64,000 nucleotides of DNA, from NCBI RefSeq assembly GCF_003018235.1, contig NZ_CP027437.1; one strand, written 5' to 3'. The DNA is from Escherichia coli (GTDB lineage: Bacteria; Pseudomonadota; Gammaproteobacteria; Enterobacterales; Enterobacteriaceae). The notes beneath the pieces are model-generated. The model was not told the DNA's origin and did no database searches. It saw only the letters and a program-made list of their open reading frames with translations. A program made the translations under genes and the position numbers. Positions 1 to 12,070 of the stretch are shown in pieces. How positions within the stretch are numbered: position 1 is the first letter of the stretch; each line of letters opens with the position of its first letter.

Positions 1-1733
1 GGTTATATTAAATATTCCGTCACTGGTCATTTGCAGGATAGTGTTCCCACAACTAAGAATTATGGAATCTCCCGCAGCAAGGCGTAAATTCTGTACGGCC
101 TGAATCGTTTTATTTTGTCCGGCAAGGGAGGTATCATCCATCTGAACTGTAAGAGAACGTTCCTCACCAATTATCGCTGTTTCTGTTTTATCAATGACTT
201 TAAGGCGATTATTGCCCACCCAGTGGCTTTCATTATTATTTACTTCAATCCGCTGATCTTTTTCGGCATGTAGCCAGACCTCTTCACCGCCAGGTTTATC
301 CTCAAAACGTAGTGCGTTGGCATTGGTTGGGCCGCCGCCGATAGTGTGACTGTAAAATCCGCTTTGCGTCGCTGCGCCCGGTAGTCCCCACGGTGGCATG
401 GTGTCCTGGTTGTAGGTACGCCCAACAATTATCGGTAAATCCGGATCACCGTTTTTGAAATCCACCAGTACTTCCTGACCAATGCGCGGGATCTGAATGC
501 CACCGAATCCTTTACCCGCCCACGGATAACTGACACGGACCCAGCAGGAACTATTTTCGTCATTCTTACCGTAACGATCCCAGCCAAACTGAACTTTCAC
601 CCGGCCATATTTATCTGTCCAGATTTCCTGCCCTGCCGGGCCGGTGACGATGGCGCTCTGCGGGCCTTTAGTGTGGGGTTTGCTCAGGGTTCGTTGTGGG
701 CGGTAAACTTCGCTGGTGGGATGCAGTTCAAAGCTGGTTGAGTAAGAGAAATGCTGCTCCTGGCCGCTGTGTTGCGCATTGTCCTGTATAAATAGCGTGG
801 TCTGTACCAGCAGATATTCCCGGTTCACTTCGGCTGTCGGATAGTTTTCCAGGATGAAGGTAAAACCTGTCATCAGGGTACGAATATTGCCGCTGCCCTG
901 TACCCGACTACCTGGGCTACGCTGTTCTTCCATGCGAATGCGTGTCAGCATTTCACCTTCACTCTTTGTGAAGTAATCTCCCGGCCATTCGTAGTGCTCA
1001 TATTCAGCAAGGCCGGTTTCACGCGGATTAGCCACGGTGCTCTTCAGCAGTGAACGCGGCTTCATAAAGTCGAAATCATTCAGCACCCACTGTCCACTGC
1101 GCAGACTTTCATTTGCTGTGATGGTATGGATAAACTCCTTGTCCAGTTTCAGCCCTTTCTGGTAATAACACACCAGCGGCGAATCTGCGCATGCCTTGTG
1201 GACATTAATGGCATCAGCCAGCACTAACGTGTGACTGTTCTCGCTGTGCTCAAACCACCAGTAGATACCCCACTCCTGCATCAGGCGCTGAACAAAATCG
1301 AAATCTGTTTCACCGTACTGCACCTGCCAGGCGCGAGTCGGATAATTTTCCACCAGTCGTTTTTCCACTGGCCAGGGGTACTCATCCAGTACCTCATCCA
1401 GGATCTCCACCACGTTTTTATTCTGAAACGCTTTGTAGTCACTAGTGTGGGTCAGTATTTTTAACCACGGTTCGAGCCGCAGTTCATACACCACCGAACG
1501 TCCTTGATGACCAGCCACGCGTGCCGCCGTCACCAGCCCGCTGATATAACGTTTTCCGCCGCCATCCAATTCGATATTGACGCACAGATCTTTGCCCACC
1601 ATCGGTTTGAGCTGCAGGTTGGCTGCGGGGGAAACATAGCCCAGGTTCAGGATGTCAGGAGTTTTTAATTTAATAGAATAAGTAAATAGTTCCCCTACTG
1701 TTTCTGTACCCCCTAAGCTTGCAAACAGTAACA
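1..1733 (-). pseudogene. vgrG: vgrG (T6SS spike protein), portion downstream of the IS3 insertion; continues beyond the window start
   Basis: Minus-strand frame is open from 1733 to position 1. Translation carries gp27-like motif [32 protein letters not shown] and the conserved [26 protein letters not shown] block. The apparent ATG at 1732-1734 is created by the IS3 terminus. Confidence 0.8.
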
Positions 1734-1763
1734 TGATCCTACCCACGTAATGTGGACACGGCC

Positions 1764-2618
1764 CTAAGCGAGATTATGGTTTTCAAATTGTTCCGGGCTG
1801 AGACCGCCACAGGCACTGTGACGACGCCAGCGATTGTAATCACTCTCGATATAATTAAACACCGTTGCCCGCATTATTTCCCGGCTGCTAAAGCGTTCCC
1901 CGTGGATACATTCCACCTTCAGCGAATGAAAGAAGCTTTCCACACAGGCATTGTCATAACAGTAGCCTTTCGCACTCATACTGCCACGCAGGTTGTGTCG
2001 CTTCAGCATTGCCTGATAATCCCCTGAACAGTATTGACCACCACGGTCCGTATGAACAATGACGTTTTCCGGGCGTCTTCTCCGCCACAACGCCATTTGC
2101 AGTGCATCACAGGCCAGTTGTGCTGTCATTCGCGGTGACATCGACCAGCCAATGACGGCGCGTGACCACAGGTCGATGACTACTGCGAGATACAACCAGC
2201 CCTCATCGGTACGCAAGTACGTGATGTCACCCGCCCACTTCTGGTTCGGGCCACTGGCGCTGAAGTCCTGCTCCAGCAGATTCTCCAATACGGGCAGGCC
2301 ATGTGCACGGTAGCTGACCGGGCTGAACTTCCGGCTGGCTTTCGCCCGCAGCCCCTGACGACGCAGGCTGGCGGCAATGGTTTTAATATTGAACTCCGGC
2401 AGTTCGTCAGCAAGGCGGGGAGCACCGTATCGCTGCTTTGCCTCAAAGAATGCCTTATGGACAGCGGCATCGCAGGTGAGCCGAAACTGTTGGCGCAGGC
2501 TCATCTGGTGACGACGCCTGAGCCAGACATACCAGCCGCTGCGGGCAACCCGAAGTACACGACACATCGCTTTGATGCTGAACTCTGCCCGATGATTTTC
2601 GATGAAGACATACTTCAT
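1764..2618 (-). CDS. insF: IS3 transposase OrfB (integrase/DDE catalytic part)
   Basis: 284-aa [25 protein letters not shown]... typical IS3 OrfB; overlaps orfA as expected for frameshift-fused OrfAB. Confidence 0.9.
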
Positions 2619-2914
2619 TTCAGGCGCTTCGCGAAGTATGTCGCGGCCTTTTGGAGGATGGCCAGTTCCTCAGCCTGCTCCGCCAGTTGTCGTTTAAGGC
2701 GGACATTTTCAGCGGCCAGTTCGCTTTCGCGCTCTGACGAACTCATTTGTTGCTGCTGTTTACTGCGCCAGGCATAAAGCTGAGATTCATACAGGCTGAG
2801 TTCACGGGCTGCGGCGGCCACACCGATGCGTTCAGCGAGTTTCAGGGCTTCGTTACGAAATTCAGGCGTATGTTGTTTACGGGGCTTCTTGCTGATTGAT
2901 ACTGGTTTTGTCAT
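2615..2914 (-). CDS. insE: IS3 transposase OrfA (HTH DNA-binding part)
   Basis: 99-aa [34 protein letters not shown]... matches IS3 OrfA. Confidence 0.9.
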
Positions 2915-2977
2915 GAGTCACCTCTGGTTGAGAGTTTACTCACTTAGTCCTGTGTCCACTATTGGTGGGTAAGATCA

Positions 2978-3074
2978 ACATTCCATCAGGAACTGCGCTG
3001 CCGCTCAAAGTCACGTTATGTGTACCCGATCCAGTTAGTGCGCCGGATGGATAATCTGTAGCTGCAAAACTCAT
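2978..3074 (-). pseudogene. vgrG: vgrG 5' fragment (codons 1-32) separated from the rest by IS3
   Basis: ATG at 3072-3074 (reverse strand) with AGGA Shine-Dalgarno; MSFAATDYPSGALTGSGTHNVTLSGSAVPDGM. Removing IS3 and one ACA copy joins it in frame to [16 protein letters not shown]... at 1731. Confidence 0.7.
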
Positions 3075-3295
3075 AATTAATCCTTTTAACTAGAAATGGA
3101 TAAGTGCTAATAAGAAATCTTACAGAGAATAAAATATGCAATATATTCGTAGCTGGCATAAAACATCTCAATACTTATGCGTGCTACTGAAGATACTATC
3201 AACCATATATGCCTTGAAGAATGCACCGTCATGTTAACCTGGTGGAAACATTCACCTAAAGTACATTAATAAAACTAATAAAATTATTTAATTTG

Positions 3296-3652
3296 TTATT
3301 TGATATGATTATCATCAAGTCTTAAAATACGTTCTCCGGTTCTAATTATGTTAAAACCATAGTATTCTTTTTTACTTTCGGAAGAGAGCATATATTTCCC
3401 GATATACATAACATCTGAAGATAGCTCACTTATATCAATACATACGGGTTCGAACTGACCTGTCACTCTTTTCAACTTTATTGCATTGCCATATTTACCT
3501 TCATATAAAACATAATTTGAAATAATATTCCCATCGTCTGGTTTTGAACAAATCTGTCCGTCTTGCAAATATACACTACCGGGTAACAATGGGCGAACAT
3601 AATCACCAACAGTGCATCCCGACAAAAAGAAAAACAAAAAGAATCTCTTCAT
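3296..3652 (-). CDS. small lipoprotein of unknown function (candidate immunity/inhibitor partner)
   Basis: 118-aa ORF with signal peptide and lipobox MKRFFLFFFLSGC; start codon overlaps stop of upstream gene (ATGA, 3649-3652); AT-rich codon usage. Confidence 0.6.
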   Translation of the reverse strand: MKRFFLFFFLSGCTVGDYVRPLLPGSVYLQDGQICSKPDDGNIISNYVLYEGKYGNAIKLKRVTGQFEPVCIDISELSSDVMYIGKYMLSSESKKEYYGFNIIRTGERILRLDDNHIK

Positions 3653-4179
3653 ATGACACCCGCAGGAAATAAATTAAGCACCTTTTTGTATTTTTCCGAT
3701 AGAGTGTTCACTGATTCAGTTGTATCACCTACATAGTTAACATTTGCCAAATCAGCCACCAGTCCATAGTTAATTAATAGCCAATAATCAGCAACTATAG
3801 ATGCTTGTTGTTCCATGGAATAAGAAGAAATTGACTGTAAATTAAGATCGTAATGATAATTTGCCGCCCAAGAAAATAAACCACGCAACTTAACTGCATA
3901 CCCTTTCTGATATTGCCAAACATGCATCATTTCATGAATAAACAAGTGAGAAGCACCTGCTACTGTTTCACGATCACCAGGCATTGCTTGCGATGAATAA
4001 TCTGAACTATAAACAGCATCAGGATAATACATTTCCCCGTTTGGGGTCATCGCTGTTCTTTCCCCTTGACCAGGCAAATATTTTTCATTGTGGATCCATA
4101 CCTTGCTATAATCAATTGTATTCTCAAAAATCGATCTGGCCAATGTTAATTCACCAGATGTCATTCTCCTTAATGACAT
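3649..4179 (-). CDS. zincin-like metallopeptidase-domain protein with HExxHxxQ motif (DUF4157-like)
   Basis: HEMMHVWQ encoded at 3922-3936. N-terminal LARSIFENTIDYSKVWIH...AMTPNG pattern resembles DUF4157. ATG at 4177-4179 is preceded by AGGGGA; six-frame track extends to a GTG at 4218. Confidence 0.55.
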   Translation of the reverse strand: MSLRRMTSGELTLARSIFENTIDYSKVWIHNEKYLPGQGERTAMTPNGEMYYPDAVYSSDYSSQAMPGDRETVAGASHLFIHEMMHVWQYQKGYAVKLRGLFSWAANYHYDLNLQSISSYSMEQQASIVADYWLLINYGLVADLANVNYVGDTTESVNTLSEKYKKVLNLFPAGVI

Positions 4180-5116
4180 ATCCTTTCCCCTGGAAATAAT
4201 ATCTTTCAGATAAAACACAAACGCCCTTTGATGTTCAATATTCCCACTTTATACAGTATTGATGACATCATATTCATAGAAAATAAAATCAAAGCAAGTT
4301 ATCAACGTTTCCCGTTATGATTTCTTAACATTAATTCTCAGCATTTTTATTAATCTATCTTCAATATCAATAACCGATGCAAATGATTACGCAGCTAACA
4401 TAATTCTCATCAATTGATTAATGTCTGTAAACGCTACCGCCCCACCCTGATATCTTAATCTGCACATAGCAATCTTAACGTTATGCCCCATACATTAGTA
4501 ATGTAAATTAAGAATTCGGAATATATCAAATTCACTTCATAAATTAATATCGGGAATGATATACACATTAATTATAATGAAGTAATGTTTTAAGAGTTGT
4601 AATGACCATGGAACAGGATTAATTCCAGAAGCTCCTGTTGGGCAATAGCGCGTTTATCATCCTACATGCCTCTTACATTTTTTAGCCTTTTCTTTAACGT
4701 CAGCAATTGGCTCATTTAATCAGCAATTGTATTGGTATTTGGCGTATTACCCCTGAAACCCGTCATGTGCTAGCACCTCACTATTCAATGAGCCAACCAC
4801 GCCAGTGTCCACTGCAACCACTGGCGTTCAGAGCGACGAACGAGTGGCGCAAGAGTAAGACTGCCGTCGGGCATCATCAAACCAATAGTGGTTGTTTCCG
4901 TCAAAATTTCATCAGGTTGCTATTTTGTTGCCGGCCGCCTTTATCCCCACATATTTATAGCGGGATTATTTTGCATCGTTACACGATAAAAGGTAGGATT
5001 CTGCGCCGACAGTTATACCCATAAAGAATAATGGTGAATCTTGTCATCGCCAGGATGAATAAACATTGTTCATGGCAACTTATATGACTTTTTCATTAAA
5101 GCAATCAGGGAGAGCA

Positions 5117-6616
5117 ATGAGTAAACACGACACCGACACTTCAGATCAACACGCCGCGAAACGCCGCTGGCTTAATGCCCACGAAGAGGGGTATCACAAA
5201 GCGATGGGCAATCGCCAGGTACAGATGATCGCCATTGGCGGCGCGATTGGTACGGGTTTGTTTTTAGGCGCGGGAGCCCGACTGCAAATGGCGGGGCCAG
5301 CACTGGCACTGGTCTATTTGATCTGCGGCCTGTTTTCATTTTTTATTCTGCGTGCATTGGGTGAGCTGGTGTTACACCGCCCTTCCAGTGGCAGTTTTGT
5401 CTCTTATGCCCGTGAGTTTTTAGGAGAGAAAGCCGCTTACGTTGCAGGCTGGATGTACTTCATCAACTGGGCGATGACGGGGATTGTCGATATTACCGCC
5501 GTCGCTCTGTATATGCATTACTGGGGTGCGTTTGGCGGCGTGCCGCAGTGGGTCTTTGCGCTCGCTGCGCTGACCATCGTTGGCACCATGAATATGATCG
5601 GTGTGAAATGGTTTGCCGAGATGGAGTTCTGGTTTGCGCTTATTAAAGTGCTCGCCATTGTTACCTTTTTGGTCGTGGGTACAGTGTTCCTCGGTAGTGG
5701 TCAGCCGCTGGATGGCAACACCACTGGTTTTCATTTAATTACCGATAACGGCGGCTTCTTCCCCCACGGTTTGCTGCCTGCGCTGGTGTTGATTCAGGGC
5801 GTAGTGTTTGCTTTTGCCTCCATTGAAATGGTGGGTACAGCTGCCGGAGAATGTAAAGATCCGCAGACCATGGTGCCTAAAGCCATTAACAGTGTGATTT
5901 GGCGTATTGGCCTGTTTTACGTCGGCTCCGTGGTGTTGCTGGTTATGTTATTGCCGTGGAGCGCATATCAGGCGGGGCAAAGTCCGTTCGTGACGTTTTT
6001 CTCTAAACTGGGTGTGCCATATATCGGCAGCATTATGAACATTGTGGTGCTGACCGCTGCCCTCTCCAGCCTGAACTCAGGTCTGTACTGCACCGGACGT
6101 ATTCTGCGCTCAATGGCGATGGGCGGTTCCGCACCGAGTTTTATGGCGAAAATGAGTCGTCAGCATGTGCCGTATGCCGGGATTCTGGCGACACTGGTTG
6201 TGTATGTCGTCGGCGTATTCCTCAACTATCTGGTGCCGTCGCGCGTATTTGAGATTGTGTTGAACTTCGCGTCGCTGGGAATCATCGCCTCATGGGCGTT
6301 TATCATCGTGTGCCAGATGCGCCTGCGTAAAGCGATTAAAGAAGGCAAAGCCGCGGATGTCAGTTTTAAACTGCCTGGCGCGCCCTTCACTTCCTGGCTG
6401 ACATTACTGTTTTTGCTGAGCGTCCTGGTGCTGATGGCGTTCGATTACCCGAACGGGACTTATACCATCGCGGCGCTGCCGATTATCGGTATTCTGCTGG
6501 TTATAGGCTGGTTTGGTGTGCGCAAACGCGTTGCTGAAATTCACAGCACTGCGCCAGTCGTCGAGGAAGATGAAGAACAACAGGAAATTGTGTTTAAGCC
6601 TGAAACGGCGAGTTAA
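5117..6616 (+). CDS. ansP: L-asparagine permease (APC family amino acid transporter)
   Basis: 499 aa from ATG 5117 (MSKHDTDTSDQ...); multi-TM amino acid permease; track ORF starts 17 codons upstream. Confidence 0.9.
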   Translation: MSKHDTDTSDQHAAKRRWLNAHEEGYHKAMGNRQVQMIAIGGAIGTGLFLGAGARLQMAGPALALVYLICGLFSFFILRALGELVLHRPSSGSFVSYAREFLGEKAAYVAGWMYFINWAMTGIVDITAVALYMHYWGAFGGVPQWVFALAALTIVGTMNMIGVKWFAEMEFWFALIKVLAIVTFLVVGTVFLGSGQPLDGNTTGFHLITDNGGFFPHGLLPALVLIQGVVFAFASIEMVGTAAGECKDPQTMVPKAINSVIWRIGLFYVGSVVLLVMLLPWSAYQAGQSPFVTFFSKLGVPYIGSIMNIVVLTAALSSLNSGLYCTGRILRSMAMGGSAPSFMAKMSRQHVPYAGILATLVVYVVGVFLNYLVPSRVFEIVLNFASLGIIASWAFIIVCQMRLRKAIKEGKAADVSFKLPGAPFTSWLTLLFLLSVLVLMAFDYPNGTYTIAALPIIGILLVIGWFGVRKRVAEIHSTAPVVEEDEEQQEIVFKPETAS

Positions 6617-6624
6617 TTGCAAAA

Positions 6625-6647
6625 TTGCCCGGCTACGTGCCGGGCAA
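6625..6647. terminator. bidirectional rho-independent terminator hairpin between ansP and yncE
   Basis: TTGCCCGGC-TACGT-GCCGGGCAA with A-run upstream. Confidence 0.6.
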
Positions 6648-6728
6648 ATTCAAATTACTGACGAAGGTGCCGGATACGGCGTGATAAAAGTCAGGCAAGT
6701 CTCACCGTTTTCACCCTCGCCATATCTA

Positions 6729-7790
6729 TTACAGCGCAATACGAATCACATCATCCGGCTGGGTTGCTTCCTGCTGTTTAGTGGATTTTTGTTTCACACT
6801 GACATACAGCGTTTTACCATCGGCAGACAGCGCCAGGCTGTTCGGATGAGTCGGCGTATCGAACGTTTTCACCACTTTATAGCTTTTCGCGTCAATCACA
6901 CTGACTTTACCTGCCTGACGATGCGTTACGTAGGCTTCATTACGCGCCGGGTTAAACAGCACAGCCAGTGATTCCGGTGCCGCAACCTTCGCCAGAATAT
7001 TGCCATTACGGGTATCGACCACTAACACTTCTGCGGCTTTAGAATCGGTGATAAATGCACGCTGCCTGGCGGTATCAAGGCTAATGTTGATAAAGAAGTG
7101 CTCTTTGCCGTCATCCAGCAGCTTTTTACGGCTGAGGATTTTATTGTCGGCGGTGTCGATGGTAATCAATTCGCCGTCAGCGTTAGTGGTGTAAAGACGT
7201 TTGCCTTTGCTATCCAGCGCCAGACCGGTACTCATTTTACCGGTGTTCTGGATGGCGGTTTTCAGTTTGATATTCTCGCCATCAACGACCCAAATCACGC
7301 TCTCTTTACCAATACCACTGATGTAAACGGTGTTCGTGGCATCATCAGCTACCAGCTCACGCGGTTGCAGCGGGCGCACCTCTTCCGTGCGCTTACGATC
7401 ATCCAGCACCAGACGGCCTTTCACTTCGCCCGTTTTGGCATCTATCGCCGTGACCGCGCTGTTTACAGTGTTACCAAACCACAACGTCTGAGTCGTGTTA
7501 TTGATGGTGGCACCAAACGGCTTGAGATCGTTATGGATCGCCTGCGTCACTTCCAGAGTAACCGGATCAAGACGATAAACCACGCCGCCTTTATCCAGTT
7601 TGCGGCTTTGCGAAGTGGCGAGCCACAGCGCGTTCTCCTGCTGGCTATAAGCCATTTCGTAGGCACCTTTACCTACCGCTTTACGCAGCATTTCTTCTGC
7701 AGCCTGCGTACTGAATGATGAAGCAACAAGCAATGAACCTAACAGTAATGAACCACGCAGGCGCGATGAAAACAGATGACGTAAATGCAT
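6729..7790 (-). CDS. yncE: YncE, beta-propeller protein with signal peptide
   Basis: 353-aa ORF MHLRHLFSSRLRGSLLLGSLLVASSFSTQAAE... Confidence 0.9.
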   Translation of the reverse strand: MHLRHLFSSRLRGSLLLGSLLVASSFSTQAAEEMLRKAVGKGAYEMAYSQQENALWLATSQSRKLDKGGVVYRLDPVTLEVTQAIHNDLKPFGATINNTTQTLWFGNTVNSAVTAIDAKTGEVKGRLVLDDRKRTEEVRPLQPRELVADDATNTVYISGIGKESVIWVVDGENIKLKTAIQNTGKMSTGLALDSKGKRLYTTNADGELITIDTADNKILSRKKLLDDGKEHFFINISLDTARQRAFITDSKAAEVLVVDTRNGNILAKVAAPESLAVLFNPARNEAYVTHRQAGKVSVIDAKSYKVVKTFDTPTHPNSLALSADGKTLYVSVKQKSTKQQEATQPDDVIRIAL

Positions 7791-7873
7791 GACGACTCCC
7801 TTTGATGAACCGATATTTTTGCTGCTTCACAATGCTTCGCTAAGCGTAATCATCGTTACGCTCTTGTTATAAA

Positions 7874-7892
7874 TGGGAATGGTAATCATTAT
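7874..7892. promoter_or_regulatory. candidate Fur box in the yncE/yncD divergent promoter region
   Basis: TGGGAATGGTAATCATTAT resembles the Fur consensus GATAATGATAATCATTATC; yncD encodes a TonB-dependent receptor. Confidence 0.4.
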
Positions 7893-8031
7893 TTTCTCAA
7901 ATGTGGAGCATTTCTTGCCGTTACGACTACAATTTTCTCAATTACTTAACGTATCGTGCCGTTTCGTTTTCCATATATTTACAATTTTATTACCATGGCG
8001 GCGTTTTCCCATTCTTAACCTGGCTTTTTTC

Positions 8032-10134
8032 ATGAAGATTTTTTCCGTCCGACAGACCGTTTTGCCCGCACTGCTTGTCCTTTCCCCCGTTGTTTTTGCC
8101 GCTGATGAACAGACCATGATTGTCAGTGCCGCACCGCAGGTGGTTTCAGAACTGGATACCCCAGCAGCCGTGAGCGTGGTGGATGGCGAGGAGATGCGCC
8201 TGGCAACACCGCGCATTAACTTGTCCGAATCACTGACCAGCGTGCCTGGTTTGCAGGTACAAAACCGGCAGAACTATGCGCAAGATTTACAGCTGTCGAT
8301 TCGCGGATTTGGCTCCCGCTCCACTTACGGAATTCGCGGTATTCGCCTGTATGTGGACGGTATTCCCGCCACCATGCCCGACGGACAAGGGCAAACATCC
8401 AACATCGATTTAAGCAGTGTACAAAATGTGGAAGTGCTGCGCGGCCCCTTCTCTGCTCTGTATGGCAACGCGTCTGGCGGTGTAATGAATGTCATCACCC
8501 AGACCGGACAACAGCCACCAACCATTGAAGCCAGTAGTTACTACGGCAGTTTTGGCAGCTGGCGCTATGGGCTGAAAGCAACAGGCGCAATGGGCGACGG
8601 CACTCAGCCTGGCGATGTCGATTACACCGTCTCAACCACGCGCTTTACGACCCACGGCTATCGTGATCATAGTGGCGCACAGAAAAATTTAGCCAATGCC
8701 AAACTGGGCGTACGCATTGATGACGCCAGCAAATTAAGCCTGATTTTCAATAGTGTGGATATCAAAGCAGATGACCCAGGTGGGCTAACCGAAGCAGAAT
8801 GGAAGGCGAATCCGCAACAAGCGCCACGCGCTGAACAGTACGACACGCGAAAAACCATCAAGCAAACTCAGGCTGGGTTGCGCTATGAACGTAGCCTGAG
8901 CGCACAAGATGATATGAGTGTGATGATGTATGCCGGGGAGCGAGAAACGACCCAGTACCAGTCAATCCCGATGGCACCACAACTTAACCCGTCGCATGCG
9001 GGCGGCGTGATTACTCTGCAACGCCATTATCAGGGGATAGACAGCCGCTGGACACACCGTGGCGAGCTGGGCGTTCCGCTCACGTTCACTACCGGCCTGA
9101 ACTACGAAAACATGAGTGAAAATCGCAAAGGCTACAATAACTTCCGCCTGAATAGCGGCGTGCCGGAATACGGGCAAAAAGGTGAGTTGCGCCGTGACGA
9201 ACGCAATCTGATGTGGAACGTCGATCCCTATTTGCAGACACAGTGGCAGCTGAGCGAAAAACTGTCGCTGGATGCTGGCGTGCGCTACAGCTCCGTATGG
9301 TTTGATTCCAACGACCATTACGTTACTCCGGGTAACGGCGATGACAGCGGTGATGCCAGTTATCACAAATGGCTACCTGCCGGTTCGTTAAAATATGCAA
9401 TGACCGATGCCTGGAATATCTATCTGGCAGCCGGGCGAGGTTTTGAAACGCCGACGATTAATGAGCTGTCTTATCGTGCTGACGGTCAAAGCGGTATGAA
9501 CTTTGGTTTAAAACCATCCACCAACGATACAATTGAGATCGGCAGTAAAACGCGTATTGGTGATGGGCTGCTTAGTCTCGCATTGTTCCAGACCGACACC
9601 GATGATGAAATTGTTGTCGATAGCAGTAGCGGTGGGCGTACGACTTACAAAAATGCCGGAAAGACCCGTCGTCAAGGCGCTGAGCTGGCATGGGATCAAC
9701 GTTTCGCGGGAGATTTTCGTGTAAAAGCGTCCTGGACCTGGCTCGATGCGACCTATCGCAGCAATGTTTGCAATGAACAGGATTGTAACGGTAACCGGAT
9801 GCCAGGGATCGCCCGTAATATGGGCTTTGCGTCGATAGGTTATGTACCGGAGGATGGCTGGTATGCAGGTACGGAAGCGCGTTATATGGGCGATATTATG
9901 GCAGATGATGAAAATACGGCCAAAGCGCCGTCTTATACTCTCGTCGGCTTATTCACCGGGTATAAATACAATTACCACAATTTAACTGTGGATTTATTTG
10001 GTCGTGTCGATAATTTATTCGATAAAGAATACGTTGGTTCTGTCATTGTCAATGAGTCAAACGGGCGATATTACGAACCTGCGCCCGGGCGAAATTATGG
10101 TGTCGGCATGAATATTGCATGGCGATTTGAGTAA
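8032..10134 (+). CDS. yncD: TonB-dependent outer membrane receptor
   Basis: 700 aa from ATG 8032 (MKIFSVRQTVLPALLVLSPVVFAADEQ); C-terminal ...AWRFE typical TonB-dependent receptor terminus. Confidence 0.9.
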   Translation: MKIFSVRQTVLPALLVLSPVVFAADEQTMIVSAAPQVVSELDTPAAVSVVDGEEMRLATPRINLSESLTSVPGLQVQNRQNYAQDLQLSIRGFGSRSTYGIRGIRLYVDGIPATMPDGQGQTSNIDLSSVQNVEVLRGPFSALYGNASGGVMNVITQTGQQPPTIEASSYYGSFGSWRYGLKATGAMGDGTQPGDVDYTVSTTRFTTHGYRDHSGAQKNLANAKLGVRIDDASKLSLIFNSVDIKADDPGGLTEAEWKANPQQAPRAEQYDTRKTIKQTQAGLRYERSLSAQDDMSVMMYAGERETTQYQSIPMAPQLNPSHAGGVITLQRHYQGIDSRWTHRGELGVPLTFTTGLNYENMSENRKGYNNFRLNSGVPEYGQKGELRRDERNLMWNVDPYLQTQWQLSEKLSLDAGVRYSSVWFDSNDHYVTPGNGDDSGDASYHKWLPAGSLKYAMTDAWNIYLAAGRGFETPTINELSYRADGQSGMNFGLKPSTNDTIEIGSKTRIGDGLLSLALFQTDTDDEIVVDSSSGGRTTYKNAGKTRRQGAELAWDQRFAGDFRVKASWTWLDATYRSNVCNEQDCNGNRMPGIARNMGFASIGYVPEDGWYAGTEARYMGDIMADDENTAKAPSYTLVGLFTGYKYNYHNLTVDLFGRVDNLFDKEYVGSVIVNESNGRYYEPAPGRNYGVGMNIAWRFE

Positions 10135-10142
10135 TTACCTTG

Positions 10143-10164
10143 ATGCCCGGTATTTGCCGGGCAT
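10143..10164. terminator. rho-independent terminator after yncD
   Basis: ATGCCCGG-TATTT-GCCGGGCAT followed by T-rich tract. Confidence 0.6.
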
Positions 10165-10169
10165 TTACT

Positions 10170-10835
10170 TTAACGATTGTATTGCTGGTATAAAATAGCA
10201 ATATTTTGTTGCATAATTTCAGCAAGACAATGTCTGCATCCCTCTTTGTCTTTTGCTTTTAACGCGGCGAGTAATAGACGATAGTTTTCTATACGCTCCC
10301 GTAATTCCGCTGGATTAATCGCTTCATAGAGATAATGTAAACCAGGTCCCATCCTGACCCACAGTTGCTCAATCATCTCACACAGGATGGGCATATTTGA
10401 ACGATGATAAATCGCTAAGCGAAATAGCCTGTTCGCATTAATGATTTGTTCCATGTCGCCCTTTTCTTGCGCCTGCTGTAATTTCTCGAGCAATTCCTCG
10501 AGTTCCGCCAGGTCTTGCGGGGTGAGGTTTTCAACAGCCAGAGTAACTGCCATTAATTCCAGCTCGTAGCGGATCCGATTGATTTCGTCTAATTGACGTT
10601 TCCCCACTTCCGGAACTGTAAATGCTTGCGCTGGTGCGACAGAAAGCGCATTCACCGAAACCAGACGTAATAATGCTTCACGCACAGGTGTAATACTCAT
10701 ACCTAATTGCTCCGCCAGATTTTTAGTAATCAGGCGTGCGCCAGGTTTTAGTGCGCCAATACTAAGCTGATGTTTCAGGTCATTCTCAACCTGCAGAGTC
10801 AAACTGACATGTTTCATTTTTTCCGTTCCAGGCAT
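10170..10835 (-). CDS. mcbR: GntR-family transcriptional regulator McbR
   Basis: 221 aa from ATG at 10835 (MPGTEKMKHVSLTLQVENDLKHQLSIGALKPGARL); GntR HTH plus FCD domain. Confidence 0.85.
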   Translation of the reverse strand: MPGTEKMKHVSLTLQVENDLKHQLSIGALKPGARLITKNLAEQLGMSITPVREALLRLVSVNALSVAPAQAFTVPEVGKRQLDEINRIRYELELMAVTLAVENLTPQDLAELEELLEKLQQAQEKGDMEQIINANRLFRLAIYHRSNMPILCEMIEQLWVRMGPGLHYLYEAINPAELRERIENYRLLLAALKAKDKEGCRHCLAEIMQQNIAILYQQYNR

Positions 10836-11032
10836 TTTAATTCCTTCGCGTGTTTTCTGTCCAACCCTGTCTGCATGGCAGAAGGAGTTCACCTGGGGTA
10901 TTAAAGTGAATAATCATAAACCACTCACCTTTGTTGTTATTAGCAGCAGAACAATGACGTGGTTAGTTAATTAAAGCTGAAAATAAGCTTTTTGCCTGGA
11001 TTTTTATGGCGGCTTACGCCGCCGTCGTATCT

Positions 11033-12070
11033 TTAATCATCACCCGCCACGCGGATCACCACTTTGCCGAAGTTTTTACCCTTCAGCAGGCCGATAAATG
11101 TCTGTGGCGCATTCTCTAAACCGTCAGTAATTTCTTCGCGGTAGTGGATTTTATCCTCTTTCACCCATTGCCCCATCTCCTTCTGAAACTCATGGATGCG
11201 GTGACCATAATCCTGAGCGATAATAAATCCTTGCAAGCGAATACGTTTTTTCAGCACCGTAGCCATCAGCAGAGGTAAACGATCCGGACCGGGTGGTAGC
11301 TCTGTAGCGTTATAGCTGCTCACTAAGCCGCAGACGGGAATGCGCGCAGATGTATTAAGTAAAGGTAGCACTGCATCAAATACCTTACCGCCCACGTTTT
11401 CATAATAGATATCAATACCTTTTGGGCACGCTTTCGCCAGTTGTTCGGCAAAATCATCCGCATGGTGATCAAGGCATACATCGAAGCCTAAAACCTCGGT
11501 AGCATGGCGGCATTTTTCCGCGCCACCGGCTATCCCCACCACCCTGCAACCTTTAAGTTTGCCGATTTGACCCACCGTCGCCCCCACTGGTCCTGTCGCC
11601 GCAGCTACCACCAGCGTTTCGCCCTCTTTGGGCTGACCGATATCCAGCAGCCCCATATAAGCGGTAAAGCCTGGCATCCCCAGCACACCCAGCGACCACG
11701 ATGGATTTTGCGGATGATCGCCAAGTTTCACCAGATCATCACCACTGGATATGTCATAGTCCTGCCATCCACTGTAGCCCAGCACCCAGTCGCCAGGCTG
11801 ATAATCAGGATGATTCGACTCCACGACACGGCTCACCGTGCCGCCGACCATCACGCCGCCAATATCAACCGGCGGCGAATAGGATGGCTCATCGCTCATG
11901 CGCCCGCGCATATACGGGTCCAGTGACAGATAAACAGTACGCAGTAACACCTGTCCTTCACCTGGAGTTGCGACGTCATCCTCTTCAAGACGGAAATTCT
12001 CGGGAATTGGCGCGCCATGCGGACGCGAGGCCAGAACCCAACGGCGGTTACGTTGCTTTTGTTGCCCCAT
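11033..12070 (-). CDS. curA: NADPH-dependent curcumin/dihydrocurcumin reductase (MDR family)
   Basis: 345 aa from ATG at 12070 (MGQQKQRNRRWVLASRPHGAP...). Confidence 0.85.
   Translation of the reverse strand: MGQQKQRNRRWVLASRPHGAPIPENFRLEEDDVATPGEGQVLLRTVYLSLDPYMRGRMSDEPSYSPPVDIGGVMVGGTVSRVVESNHPDYQPGDWVLGYSGWQDYDISSGDDLVKLGDHPQNPSWSLGVLGMPGFTAYMGLLDIGQPKEGETLVVAAATGPVGATVGQIGKLKGCRVVGIAGGAEKCRHATEVLGFDVCLDHHADDFAEQLAKACPKGIDIYYENVGGKVFDAVLPLLNTSARIPVCGLVSSYNATELPPGPDRLPLLMATVLKKRIRLQGFIIAQDYGHRIHEFQKEMGQWVKEDKIHYREEITDGLENAPQTFIGLLKGKNFGKVVIRVAGDD

Follow-up and report, generated by a model that had tools for sequence, protein, structure and literature searches.

The 5′ end of a vgrG gene is interrupted by ISEc16, an insertion sequence (IS) of the IS3 family, in the 64-kb stretch of Escherichia coli DNA analysed here (the window). 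We consider it very likely that the element transposed into the vgrG of an orphan island in one clone, duplicating the trinucleotide ACA at its target, and that this gene's type VI secretion system (T6SS) spike was probably lost with it. A preliminary description of the locus had IS3 splitting vgrG after codon 32, and this split was confirmed, with the element at 1734–2977 and the insertion point between bases 1 and 2 of codon 33. The ATG of vgrG at 3074, which is also the annotated start of intact alleles, begins MSFAATDYPSGALTGSGTHNVTLSGSAVPDGM, and codon 32 occupies positions 2981–2979. The locus is organized as follows:

1–1733, minus strand: vgrG 3′ remnant, codons 33–609 of 664, including the left ACA copy and running off the left window edge
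1731–1733, unstranded: left ACA of the target-site duplication (TGT when read on the gene strand); one ACA in the intact allele
1734–2977, minus strand: ISEc16 (IS3 family), 1,244 bp, with its transposase genes co-oriented with vgrG
1734–1772, unstranded: terminal inverted repeat IRR, orfA-distal, TGATCCTACCCACGTAATGTGGACACGGCCCTAAGCGAG, matching the other end at 30/39 positions
1764–2618, minus strand: orfB, 284 aa, DDE/rve catalytic part (NF033516; PF00665 rve on the identical gene of L017)
2615–2914, minus strand: orfA, 99 aa, helix-turn-helix transposase part (partial match to NF033516; PF01527 on the identical gene of L017)
2648–2652, minus strand: slippery motif A AAA G
2939–2977, unstranded: terminal inverted repeat IRL, orfA-proximal, matching IRR at 30/39 positions
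2978–2980, unstranded: right copy of the target-site duplication, ACA; one ACA in the intact allele
2978–3074, minus strand: vgrG 5′ remnant, codons 1–32 plus one base, with the start ATG at 3074–3072

Identity of the element and its target-site duplication

The ends of the element were read directly off the sequence, at T1734 (TGATCCTACC...) and A2977 (...GGTAAGATCA). They form imperfect inverted repeats of the 5′-TG...CA-3′ type (TGATCCTACCCAC... and ...GTGGGTAAGATCA), with 30 matches over the first 39 positions, and the end motif TGATCYTACCCAC occurs twice in the 64-kb window, both times at an element end, compared with a chance expectation of 0.05. Annotated copies of ISEc16 share 99.3–99.4% nucleotide identity with the window element over its full 1,244 bp (1,235–1,237 of the 1,244 positions are the same in five sampled copies), whereas canonical IS3 is only 81.6–81.8% identical and, at 1,258 bp, is 14 bp longer. 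In ISfinder practice, elements with more than about 95% identity are the same IS. Judged by these values, the inserted element is ISEc16, an IS3-family member, and not canonical IS3. The name IS3 given to it in the preliminary description therefore stands for the family but not for the element (99.4% identity to ISEc16, about 81.7% to canonical IS3). Canonical IS3 shares the family and its architecture, i.e. TG...CA ends, OrfA and OrfB joined by a −1 frameshift, a DDE transposase and a 3-bp duplication. The ISEc16 of strain 536 (NC_008253, 303530–304773) resembles the window element in length (1,244 bp), in its TGATCC...AAGATCA termini, in its orfA/orfB layout and in the A AAA G motif. Compared with the sampled ISEc16 copies, the window element has 7–9 substitutions, a new site and a clean 3-bp duplication where many of the others lack one.

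Members of the IS3 family transpose by a copy-out/paste-in route and produce their transposase through a programmed −1 frameshift. In the window element, the orfB ATG overlaps the orfA stop (ATGA), and the phase of the slippery motif fits a −1 frameshift joining OrfA to OrfB. The fused OrfAB of 383 aa is open, as is OrfA, and RefSeq marks a ‘programmed frameshift’ on ISEc16 copies. OrfB scored 322.9 bits with the NF033516 profile (IS3 family transposase; cutoff 160). The identity, the TG...CA inverted repeats, the overlapping ORFs with an rve domain and the short target-site duplication together place the element within ISEc16.

The intact duplication of ACA previously reported on both flanks is present at 1731–1733 and 2978–2980. 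By itself, a 3-nt match between flanks has a probability of 1/64 by chance. In the alignment, the join in intact vgrG alleles shows a single ACA where the window has ACA/ACA, and the 3-bp target-site duplication is therefore real. This argument rests on the intact allele because, among ISEc16 copies elsewhere, a clean 3-bp repeat was found at only one of five independent full-length sites (GAG/GAG) and at none of the other four. Five further ISEc16 matches represent one ancestral truncated remnant and are uninformative on duplication. A target-site preference was also considered, as a BLAST match with ISEc16 ran 15 nt past the IS end and the flanks agreed with those of the strain 536 copy at 12/16 positions; we treat this agreement as chance because five other independent ISEc16 copies share no flank consensus.

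The interrupted gene and its intact alleles

At present, vgrG consists of a 32-codon head and a 632-codon body lying 1,247 bp apart, with no uninterrupted frame between them. The native frame enters the IS and stops 12 codons on, giving a 44-aa hybrid ORF (2940–3074). The vgrG of the window is thus a disrupted member (a pseudogene) and not a functional one. Deletion of 1734–2980, i.e. the element and one ACA copy, leaves a stop-free frame of 609 codons up to window position 1 that matches annotated 664-aa genes, in agreement with the earlier proposal that this excision restores a contiguous, in-frame vgrG. The downstream frame had been taken for VgrG, and homology bears this out: the repaired protein scored 557.5 bits with TIGR03361 (VgrG; cutoff 186.35) and 417 bits with TIGR01646 (cutoff 121.8), and matched the solved VgrGs 9MLP, 7Q5P and 4MTK with E values from 0 to 1e-135. 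The domains PF05954, PF04717 and PF22178 (Phage_GPD, Phage_base_V and Gp5_trimer_C) are recorded on identical vgrG alleles. A homologue search with VgrG returned near-identical sequences only, a set too uniform for predicting the structure of the N-terminus.

Intact alleles, annotated as ‘type VI secretion system Vgr family protein’ (664 aa), were found in many relatives. The repaired 600 nt are 100% identical to such genes in at least 30 complete E. coli genomes, and at least 80% of this segment is present in 223 of 5,426 complete E. coli genomes. Over the repaired 2,053 nt, H136 gave a single-piece match (3,786 bits) with one amino-acid difference, and the intact allele of Res13-Lact-PER13-34 showed about 1 mismatch. 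As the preliminary description would have it, the two flanks are contiguous in E. coli alleles without the IS and align ungapped over the excision point; the alignment with the closest relative covers 5,898 nt with 0 gaps, and that with a second relative covers 10,754 nt with 1 gap, which is not at the junction. An intact 664-aa vgrG lies beside ansP, at the same chromosomal site, in three relatives, and the closest backbone relatives carry the intact gene. The idea that the host belongs to a cryptic Escherichia clade (about 97% backbone identity) was dropped because the best relatives share 98.2–98.6%, a normal divergence between E. coli phylogroups.

Both IS/vgrG junctions are absent from the 5,426 complete E. 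coli genomes, and the exact 32-nt junction has no match in GTDB representative genomes. Exact look-up of the 44-aa hybrid ORF and of a GTG-start variant of 637 aa likewise gave no match. An identical insertion is present in the draft assembly GCA_012810615.1 (L017), which shows 1 mismatch over 11,734 nt, the differing base being window position 10870. The 633-aa product of L017 (see below) is also encoded in L018 (GCA_012320005.1), which was rejected as a second carrier because its contig begins in intact vgrG sequence, 55 nt upstream of Met32.

Being repeats, IS elements often cause misassembly, and L017, the sole other carrier of the junctions, matches the window almost exactly and may stem from the same isolate. 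It is nevertheless hardly conceivable that an IS copy was simply misplaced inside vgrG during assembly, as a misjoin would not yield a perfect 3-bp duplication of a single-copy target with base-exact junctions, and the difference at window 10870 means that the window and L017 are not the same sequence record. Short-read assemblers, moreover, end contigs at IS copies rather than assembling across them.

Removing the IS and one ACA copy reproduces the intact locus of the relatives with negligible further decay, as in a recent IS-generated pseudogene. Given the divergence of about 1 nt in 2,053 from the intact allele, the intact closest relatives, the occurrence of the junctions in 0 of the 5,426 genomes and the open IS frames, the insertion is a recent event in a single E. 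coli clone, and the recency suggested beforehand is upheld.

The start codon recreated at the junction

The preliminary description called the spike gene inactivated. The full-length product is lost, but a complete loss of spike function is only probable, because the junction recreates an in-frame ATG from which a 633-aa VgrG has been called in a public assembly (GCA_012810615.1):

1732–1734, minus strand: recreated in-frame ATG at the Met32 position, its A being the last IS base and its TG coming from the duplicated TGT

The end of ISEc16 (...GGATCA) abuts the duplicated TGT and so rebuilds an ATG at Met32, 29 nt past the orfB stop. The SD-like motif GGGTAGGA sits just 2 nt upstream of it, with a duplex energy of −6.4 kcal/mol compared with −5.4 kcal/mol at the native start. 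The insertion might accordingly have remodelled vgrG, such that a VgrG without residues 1–31 is made from the recreated ATG and is at least partly functional. Transcription would come by read-through from the vgrG promoter or from the IS transposase genes, and translation might restart past the orfB stop, which precedes the ATG by 29 nt. The exact, in-frame placement of the ATG, the SD-like motif and the called 633-aa product are in line with this, and no terminator-like site was detected on the gene strand from 1500 to 4700 (IS included). Few positions of the conserved core would be lost, with the TIGR03361 match starting at residue 30 and the alignments to Pseudomonas VgrG structures at residue 29. 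We still regard a partly functional product as quite improbable. The usual spacing between SD and ATG is 5–9 nt, and the motif is too near by this rule; the gene strand shows no promoter-like site facing outward. The solved homologue 9MLP conserves residues 10–31 (..HNVTLSGSAVPDG), and in other VgrGs these residues align with the very N-terminus (8QJA from chain residue 1, 6SJL from residue 7), which points to them as the first strand of the gp27-like domain. Position 32 is Ala in 9MLP, so that Met32 lacks conservation and is no natural alternative start. Since 9MLP conserves residues 10–31 and has Ala at 32, the native VgrG start lies upstream of the break. That the IS has rewired the spike, tying the expression of a trimmed VgrG to that of the transposase, appears highly improbable.

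Island context and consequences for the T6SS

Upstream of vgrG, two intact genes of the same island were identified:

3296–3652, minus strand: lipoprotein of 118 aa with lipobox LSGC, a putative immunity protein
3649–4218, minus strand: stand-alone HExxH metallopeptidase, an effector candidate (189 aa from GTG; 176 aa from the RefSeq start)

The 189-aa metallopeptidase, identical to WP_000058705.1, had no match in Pfam, NCBIfam or PADLOC, and its homology was identified by a PDB sequence search, in which residues 16–151 aligned with residues 98–233 of 6H56, the VgrG2b C-terminal toxin domain (E = 1e-20), placing IHEMMHVWQ on IHEMTHVWQ. The lipoprotein is identical to WP_000819258.1 at 116/118 positions and reached 32 bits with NF045617 (‘putative T6SS immunity periplasmic lipoprotein’), short of the 43-bit cutoff; it is likely to be the immunity protein for the adjacent metallopeptidase. 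The pair shares with the VgrG2b C-terminal toxin and the PA0261 immunity family the toxin-domain homology, the conserved HExxH and the small lipoprotein ORF that follows. Enterobacterial members of this family have been described with a small lipoprotein ORF after the toxin gene (Wood et al. 2019, PMC6899460). Unlike in VgrG2b, the candidate toxin is encoded on its own upstream of vgrG, rather than fused to the VgrG C-terminus.

Downstream of vgrG, relatives carry DcrB-related, RHS core and small immunity-like genes, and in L017 DcrB lies directly downstream of the split vgrG. The repaired gene is a full member of the vgrG-rhs islands found beside ansP in E. coli (EagR/DcrB chaperone, PAAR-Rhs toxin) and has the same neighbourhood, and the window differs from the islands of relatives in the split of its vgrG into head and body. 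The gene is therefore linked to T6SS cargo (chaperone, PAAR-Rhs and effector/immunity genes) as a VgrG (TssI) gene should be. The spike probably served two modules, namely the upstream metallopeptidase with its immunity lipoprotein and the downstream chaperone with PAAR-Rhs.

No T6SS core genes (tssA-M) were found within the 64-kb window, as would be the case if the IS had hit an island already useless in this strain (e.g. with the T6SS core absent or dead), through neutral decay and with no phenotype. The vgrG island is patchy and repeatedly decaying: it occurs in only 234 of the 5,426 genomes, and E2348/69 and XJ6-3 keep remnants of 57% and 17%, annotated ‘phage late control D family protein’. 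T6SS carriage is also variable in E. coli, with parallel losses in several lineages (PMC10711316). We consider such a useless island unlikely, though far from negligible, given that the rest of the vgrG frame is uninterrupted and departs from the intact allele by a single conservative change, and that neither the effector gene nor the immunity gene upstream is damaged. Signs of earlier decay were not seen, though so recent an event would show none either way.

Under the preferred reading, the loss of a spike through transposition, ISEc16 would have entered codon 33 by the copy-out/paste-in mechanism known from the IS3 family, duplicating the 3-bp target ACA. Translation from the native start would then yield a 44-residue peptide (32 VgrG and 12 IS-end residues), and the full-length 664-aa VgrG could no longer be made, with 632 codons cut off from the promoter-proximal start. 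A polar effect of the element may add to the loss of spike function, and the neighbouring effectors would depend on this VgrG. With the spike likely lost, the dependent toxins, i.e. the VgrG2b-like metallopeptidase and PAAR-Rhs (with its DcrB/EagR-type chaperone), would go undelivered, and the immunity genes would stay.

A precedent for IS-mediated loss of a T6SS gene is ISEc12 in tssM of E. coli ST131-C/H30 (Cummins et al. 2023, PMC10711316). In both cases, an IS with a recognisable target-site duplication has hit a T6SS structural gene that is intact in relatives. The ST131 case, in contrast, involves another IS and a membrane-complex core gene and has reached fixation in a clade with worldwide success, whereas only one clone was found to carry the insertion described here. 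IS insertion is an ordinary, already known route of T6SS gene loss, and the present case has little import beyond the strain level. In this strain, one event probably disarms two toxin modules and leaves their immunity genes in place. The recreated start leads gene callers to report a plausible 633-aa ‘VgrG’, so that the disruption is hidden from surveys of T6SS presence and absence.

Anatomy of the insertion and the allele it interrupts

The minus-strand vgrG gene is split after codon 32 by an inserted element with ACA on both sides, as the preliminary description had read directly from the sequence. The features that define the insertion are as follows:

1731-1733 and 2978-2980: ACA direct repeats immediately flanking both element ends
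1734-2977: inserted element of 1,244 bp, with plus-strand start T1734 (TGATCCTACCCACG...) and end A2977 (...GGTGGGTAAGATCA)
2940..3074, minus strand: 44-aa ORF composed of the vgrG head and element-encoded codons

The terminal inverted repeats match at 30 of their first 39 positions, and the element end motif occurs only twice in the 64-kb window, both times at the element ends (chance expectation, 0.05). From the minus-strand ATG at 3074, which starts MSFAATDYPSGALTGSGTHNVTLSGSAVPDGM, the frame enters the element and stops after 12 further codons, while removal of 1734-2980 (the element and one ACA copy) leaves one stop-free frame of 609 codons to window position 1. In a three-way alignment, the single ACA of the intact allele is both the end of the left flank and the beginning of the right flank of the window. 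The alignment proves directly that 3 bp of the target were duplicated, ACA being present once in the intact allele and twice here; this evidence weighs far more than the 3-nt flank match alone, which would arise by chance in 1 of 64 cases.

At least 30 complete E. coli genomes contain the repaired 600-nt junction at 100% identity, and 223 of 5,426 have it at ≥80% coverage, in every case on the chromosome and in a gene annotated as type VI secretion system Vgr family protein. The intact gene of strain 13P477T encodes 664 aa, its annotated start coinciding with the ATG at 3074. Against HCP5S3_I2, the closest backbone relative, the repaired window aligned as a single ungapped block (5,898 nt, 99.15% identity); against Res13-Lact-PER13-34, 2,053 nt aligned (3,786 bits) and the proteins differ at just one of the 609 visible codons (Ile for Met). 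The earlier claim that a contiguous vgrG is restored thus holds. In the latter comparison, the island (window 1-5500) has one mismatch in its vgrG part and about nine more between 3000 and 5499, and the adjacent backbone from about 5500 to 12000 mostly has 3-29 per 500 nt. As the island is near-identical and the backbone more divergent, this suggests that one or the other was exchanged by recombination.

The downstream frame is VgrG, as had been proposed: the repaired protein scored 557.5 bits against TIGR03361 (TssI/VgrG; cutoff 186.35) and 417 bits against TIGR01646, it aligned to the solved VgrG structures 9MLP (E = 0), 7Q5P and 4MTK (both E ~1e-135), and identical alleles carry Pfam Phage_GPD, Phage_base_V and Gp5_trimer_C. 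The insertion point coincides with the beginning of the conserved fold: the TIGR03361 match starts at residue 30, and Pseudomonas VgrG1 aligns from residue 29 onward. 9MLP shows conservation of residues 10-31, and the match to 8QJA places residues 15-31 at its extreme N-terminus; on this basis a first beta-strand of the gp27-like domain would be lost.

The element is ISEc16

The preliminary description called the element IS3. Its IS3-family architecture stands, but the name is to be corrected: judged by sequence, the element is ISEc16 and not IS3 proper, being 99.4% identical along its full 1,244 bp to copies annotated in RefSeq as 'IS3-like element ISEc16 family transposase', whereas canonical IS3 copies are 1,258 bp long and just 81.6-81.8% identical. 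It lies in the orientation of vgrG and encodes OrfA (99 aa) and OrfB (284 aa; 322.9 bits against NF033516, 'IS3 family transposase'), the OrfB ATG overlapping the OrfA stop. It also carries a frameshift signal:

2652..2648, minus strand: A AAA G slippery site, in a phase that fits a -1 shift to an open 383-aa OrfAB

Given this architecture, the in-phase slippery site, the open OrfAB and the OrfB score, the element looks competent to transpose. IS3-family elements transpose by copy-out/paste-in via a circular intermediate and generate target duplications of 3-4 bp. The anatomy here fits entry of ISEc16 into vgrG by this route.

We sampled the flanks of ISEc16 copies at five other loci (L001, from strain 536, and L009, L010, L012 and L014). 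Only one of the five independent sites, in N18-04097, had a clean 3-bp duplication (GAG/GAG); at the rest, the flanks were unrelated or matched at 2/3 positions, and truncated genes adjoin some of these copies, which implies that they were rearranged later. Window 1719-1733, beside the IS end, agrees at 12 of 16 positions with the sequence bordering the copy in strain 536 (L001 2501-2516); since the other copies lack this likeness, it is probably coincidence. The copy on plasmid p48B2a (L012; NZ_CP128583 51373-52616) has a VasL-domain gene on one side and tssH on the other, within a T6SS cluster carried by that plasmid; in at least two genomes (H190, H192), canonical IS3 copies adjoin RHS genes. 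IS3-family elements are repeatedly found inside or beside T6SS/rhs loci.

Cargo genes and decay of the locus

Three relatives carry intact vgrG at the same chromosomal site, adjoining ansP, followed on its 3' side by genes for a DcrB-related (EagR-type) chaperone and an RHS core protein of ~1,450-1,560 aa and, further along, by small immunity-like ORFs and symE. Immediately upstream of vgrG, the window contains two intact genes that RefSeq calls 'hypothetical':

3296-3652, minus strand: putative immunity lipoprotein, 118 aa, with a lipobox
3649-4218, minus strand: HExxH protein, 189 aa

The 189-aa protein, a putative toxin unrecognised by Pfam and NCBIfam, aligns to the metallopeptidase toxin domain of P. 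aeruginosa VgrG2b (PDB 6H56, E = 1e-20), with IHEMMHVWQ opposite IHEMTHVWQ. Unlike that domain, which is part of VgrG2b itself, it looks like a stand-alone protein. The 118-aa protein gave a sub-threshold match to a T6SS immunity lipoprotein family. In the VgrG2b-type toxin family a small immunity ORF comes next, and in enterobacteria the homologues of the immunity protein are predicted to be lipoproteins (Wood et al. 2019, PMC6899460). The two genes are likely an effector/immunity pair, and we therefore infer that the split spike probably served two cargo modules, this pair and the chaperone and Rhs toxin encoded on the 3' side in relatives.

The vgrG locus was present in just 234 of 5,426 genomes, and in several strains deletion has left no more than 57% or 17% of this vgrG (H169-H175; e.g. 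E2348/69, NC_011601 1641341-1642505). These remnants bear the annotation phage late control D family protein, and some of them abut an RHS gene. The locus is patchy in E. coli and undergoes repeated decay, also by routes besides IS insertion. IS-mediated loss of T6SS genes is an ordinary, already known phenomenon, documented in E. coli for ISEc12 in tssM of ST131-C/H30 (PMC10711316).

Two RNAs were also detected with Rfam; both are ordinary for E. coli and have no connection with the insertion:

38472-38623, plus strand: sok antitoxin RNA (109.7 bits)
39173-39236, plus strand: sRNA RydC (92.5 bits)

Recency and a recreated start codon

Both junctions were missing from all 5,426 complete genomes (400-nt probes centred on each end), the exact 32-nt junction was not found in GTDB representative genomes, and all nearest relatives have the intact gene. 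An exact look-up of the junction-ATG product returned two assemblies. One, GCA_012810615.1, has the same insertion (L017, contig AATHQV010000008.1) and aligns to 11,734 nt of the window without gaps, differing at a single base (window 10870); it belongs to the same clone and may even be the same isolate. The second hit (L018, GCA_012320005.1 contig AASEVB010000061.1, 1-120) does not carry the insertion and arose from gene calling at a contig edge: the contig begins 55 nt upstream of Met32, in intact vgrG sequence. The absence of the junctions elsewhere, the intact relatives, the one carrier and the near-zero divergence of the remnant from the intact allele indicate that the insertion arose recently in one clone, in agreement with the recency first proposed.

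With the 664-aa frame broken after codon 32, full-length VgrG is no longer producible, the native start yielding a 44-residue peptide. The spike gene had been described as inactivated; loss of spike function is likely but is inferred. Overall, the initial observation is confirmed and its interpretation supported, with corrections to the element name and to the standing of inactivation.

The preliminary description overlooked that the IS end (...GGATCA) and the duplicated TGT together rebuild an ATG, in frame and exactly where Met32 lies (1732-1734, minus strand), 29 nt past the orfB stop. Production from it of a VgrG lacking residues 1-31 is conceivable, since an SD-like GGGTAGGA lies upstream (duplex -6.4 kcal/mol) and a scan of the gene strand found no terminator-like site. 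However, the motif ends just 2 nt before the ATG, the native start having AAGGA at normal spacing, and the same scan found no outward promoter-like site, so that such a product is very unlikely to be abundant or functional. In GCA_012810615.1, a 633-aa 'VgrG' was nevertheless called from the recreated ATG (L017 10001-11902). The recreated start thus misleads gene callers, and automated surveys of T6SS genes would score this disrupted vgrG as present.
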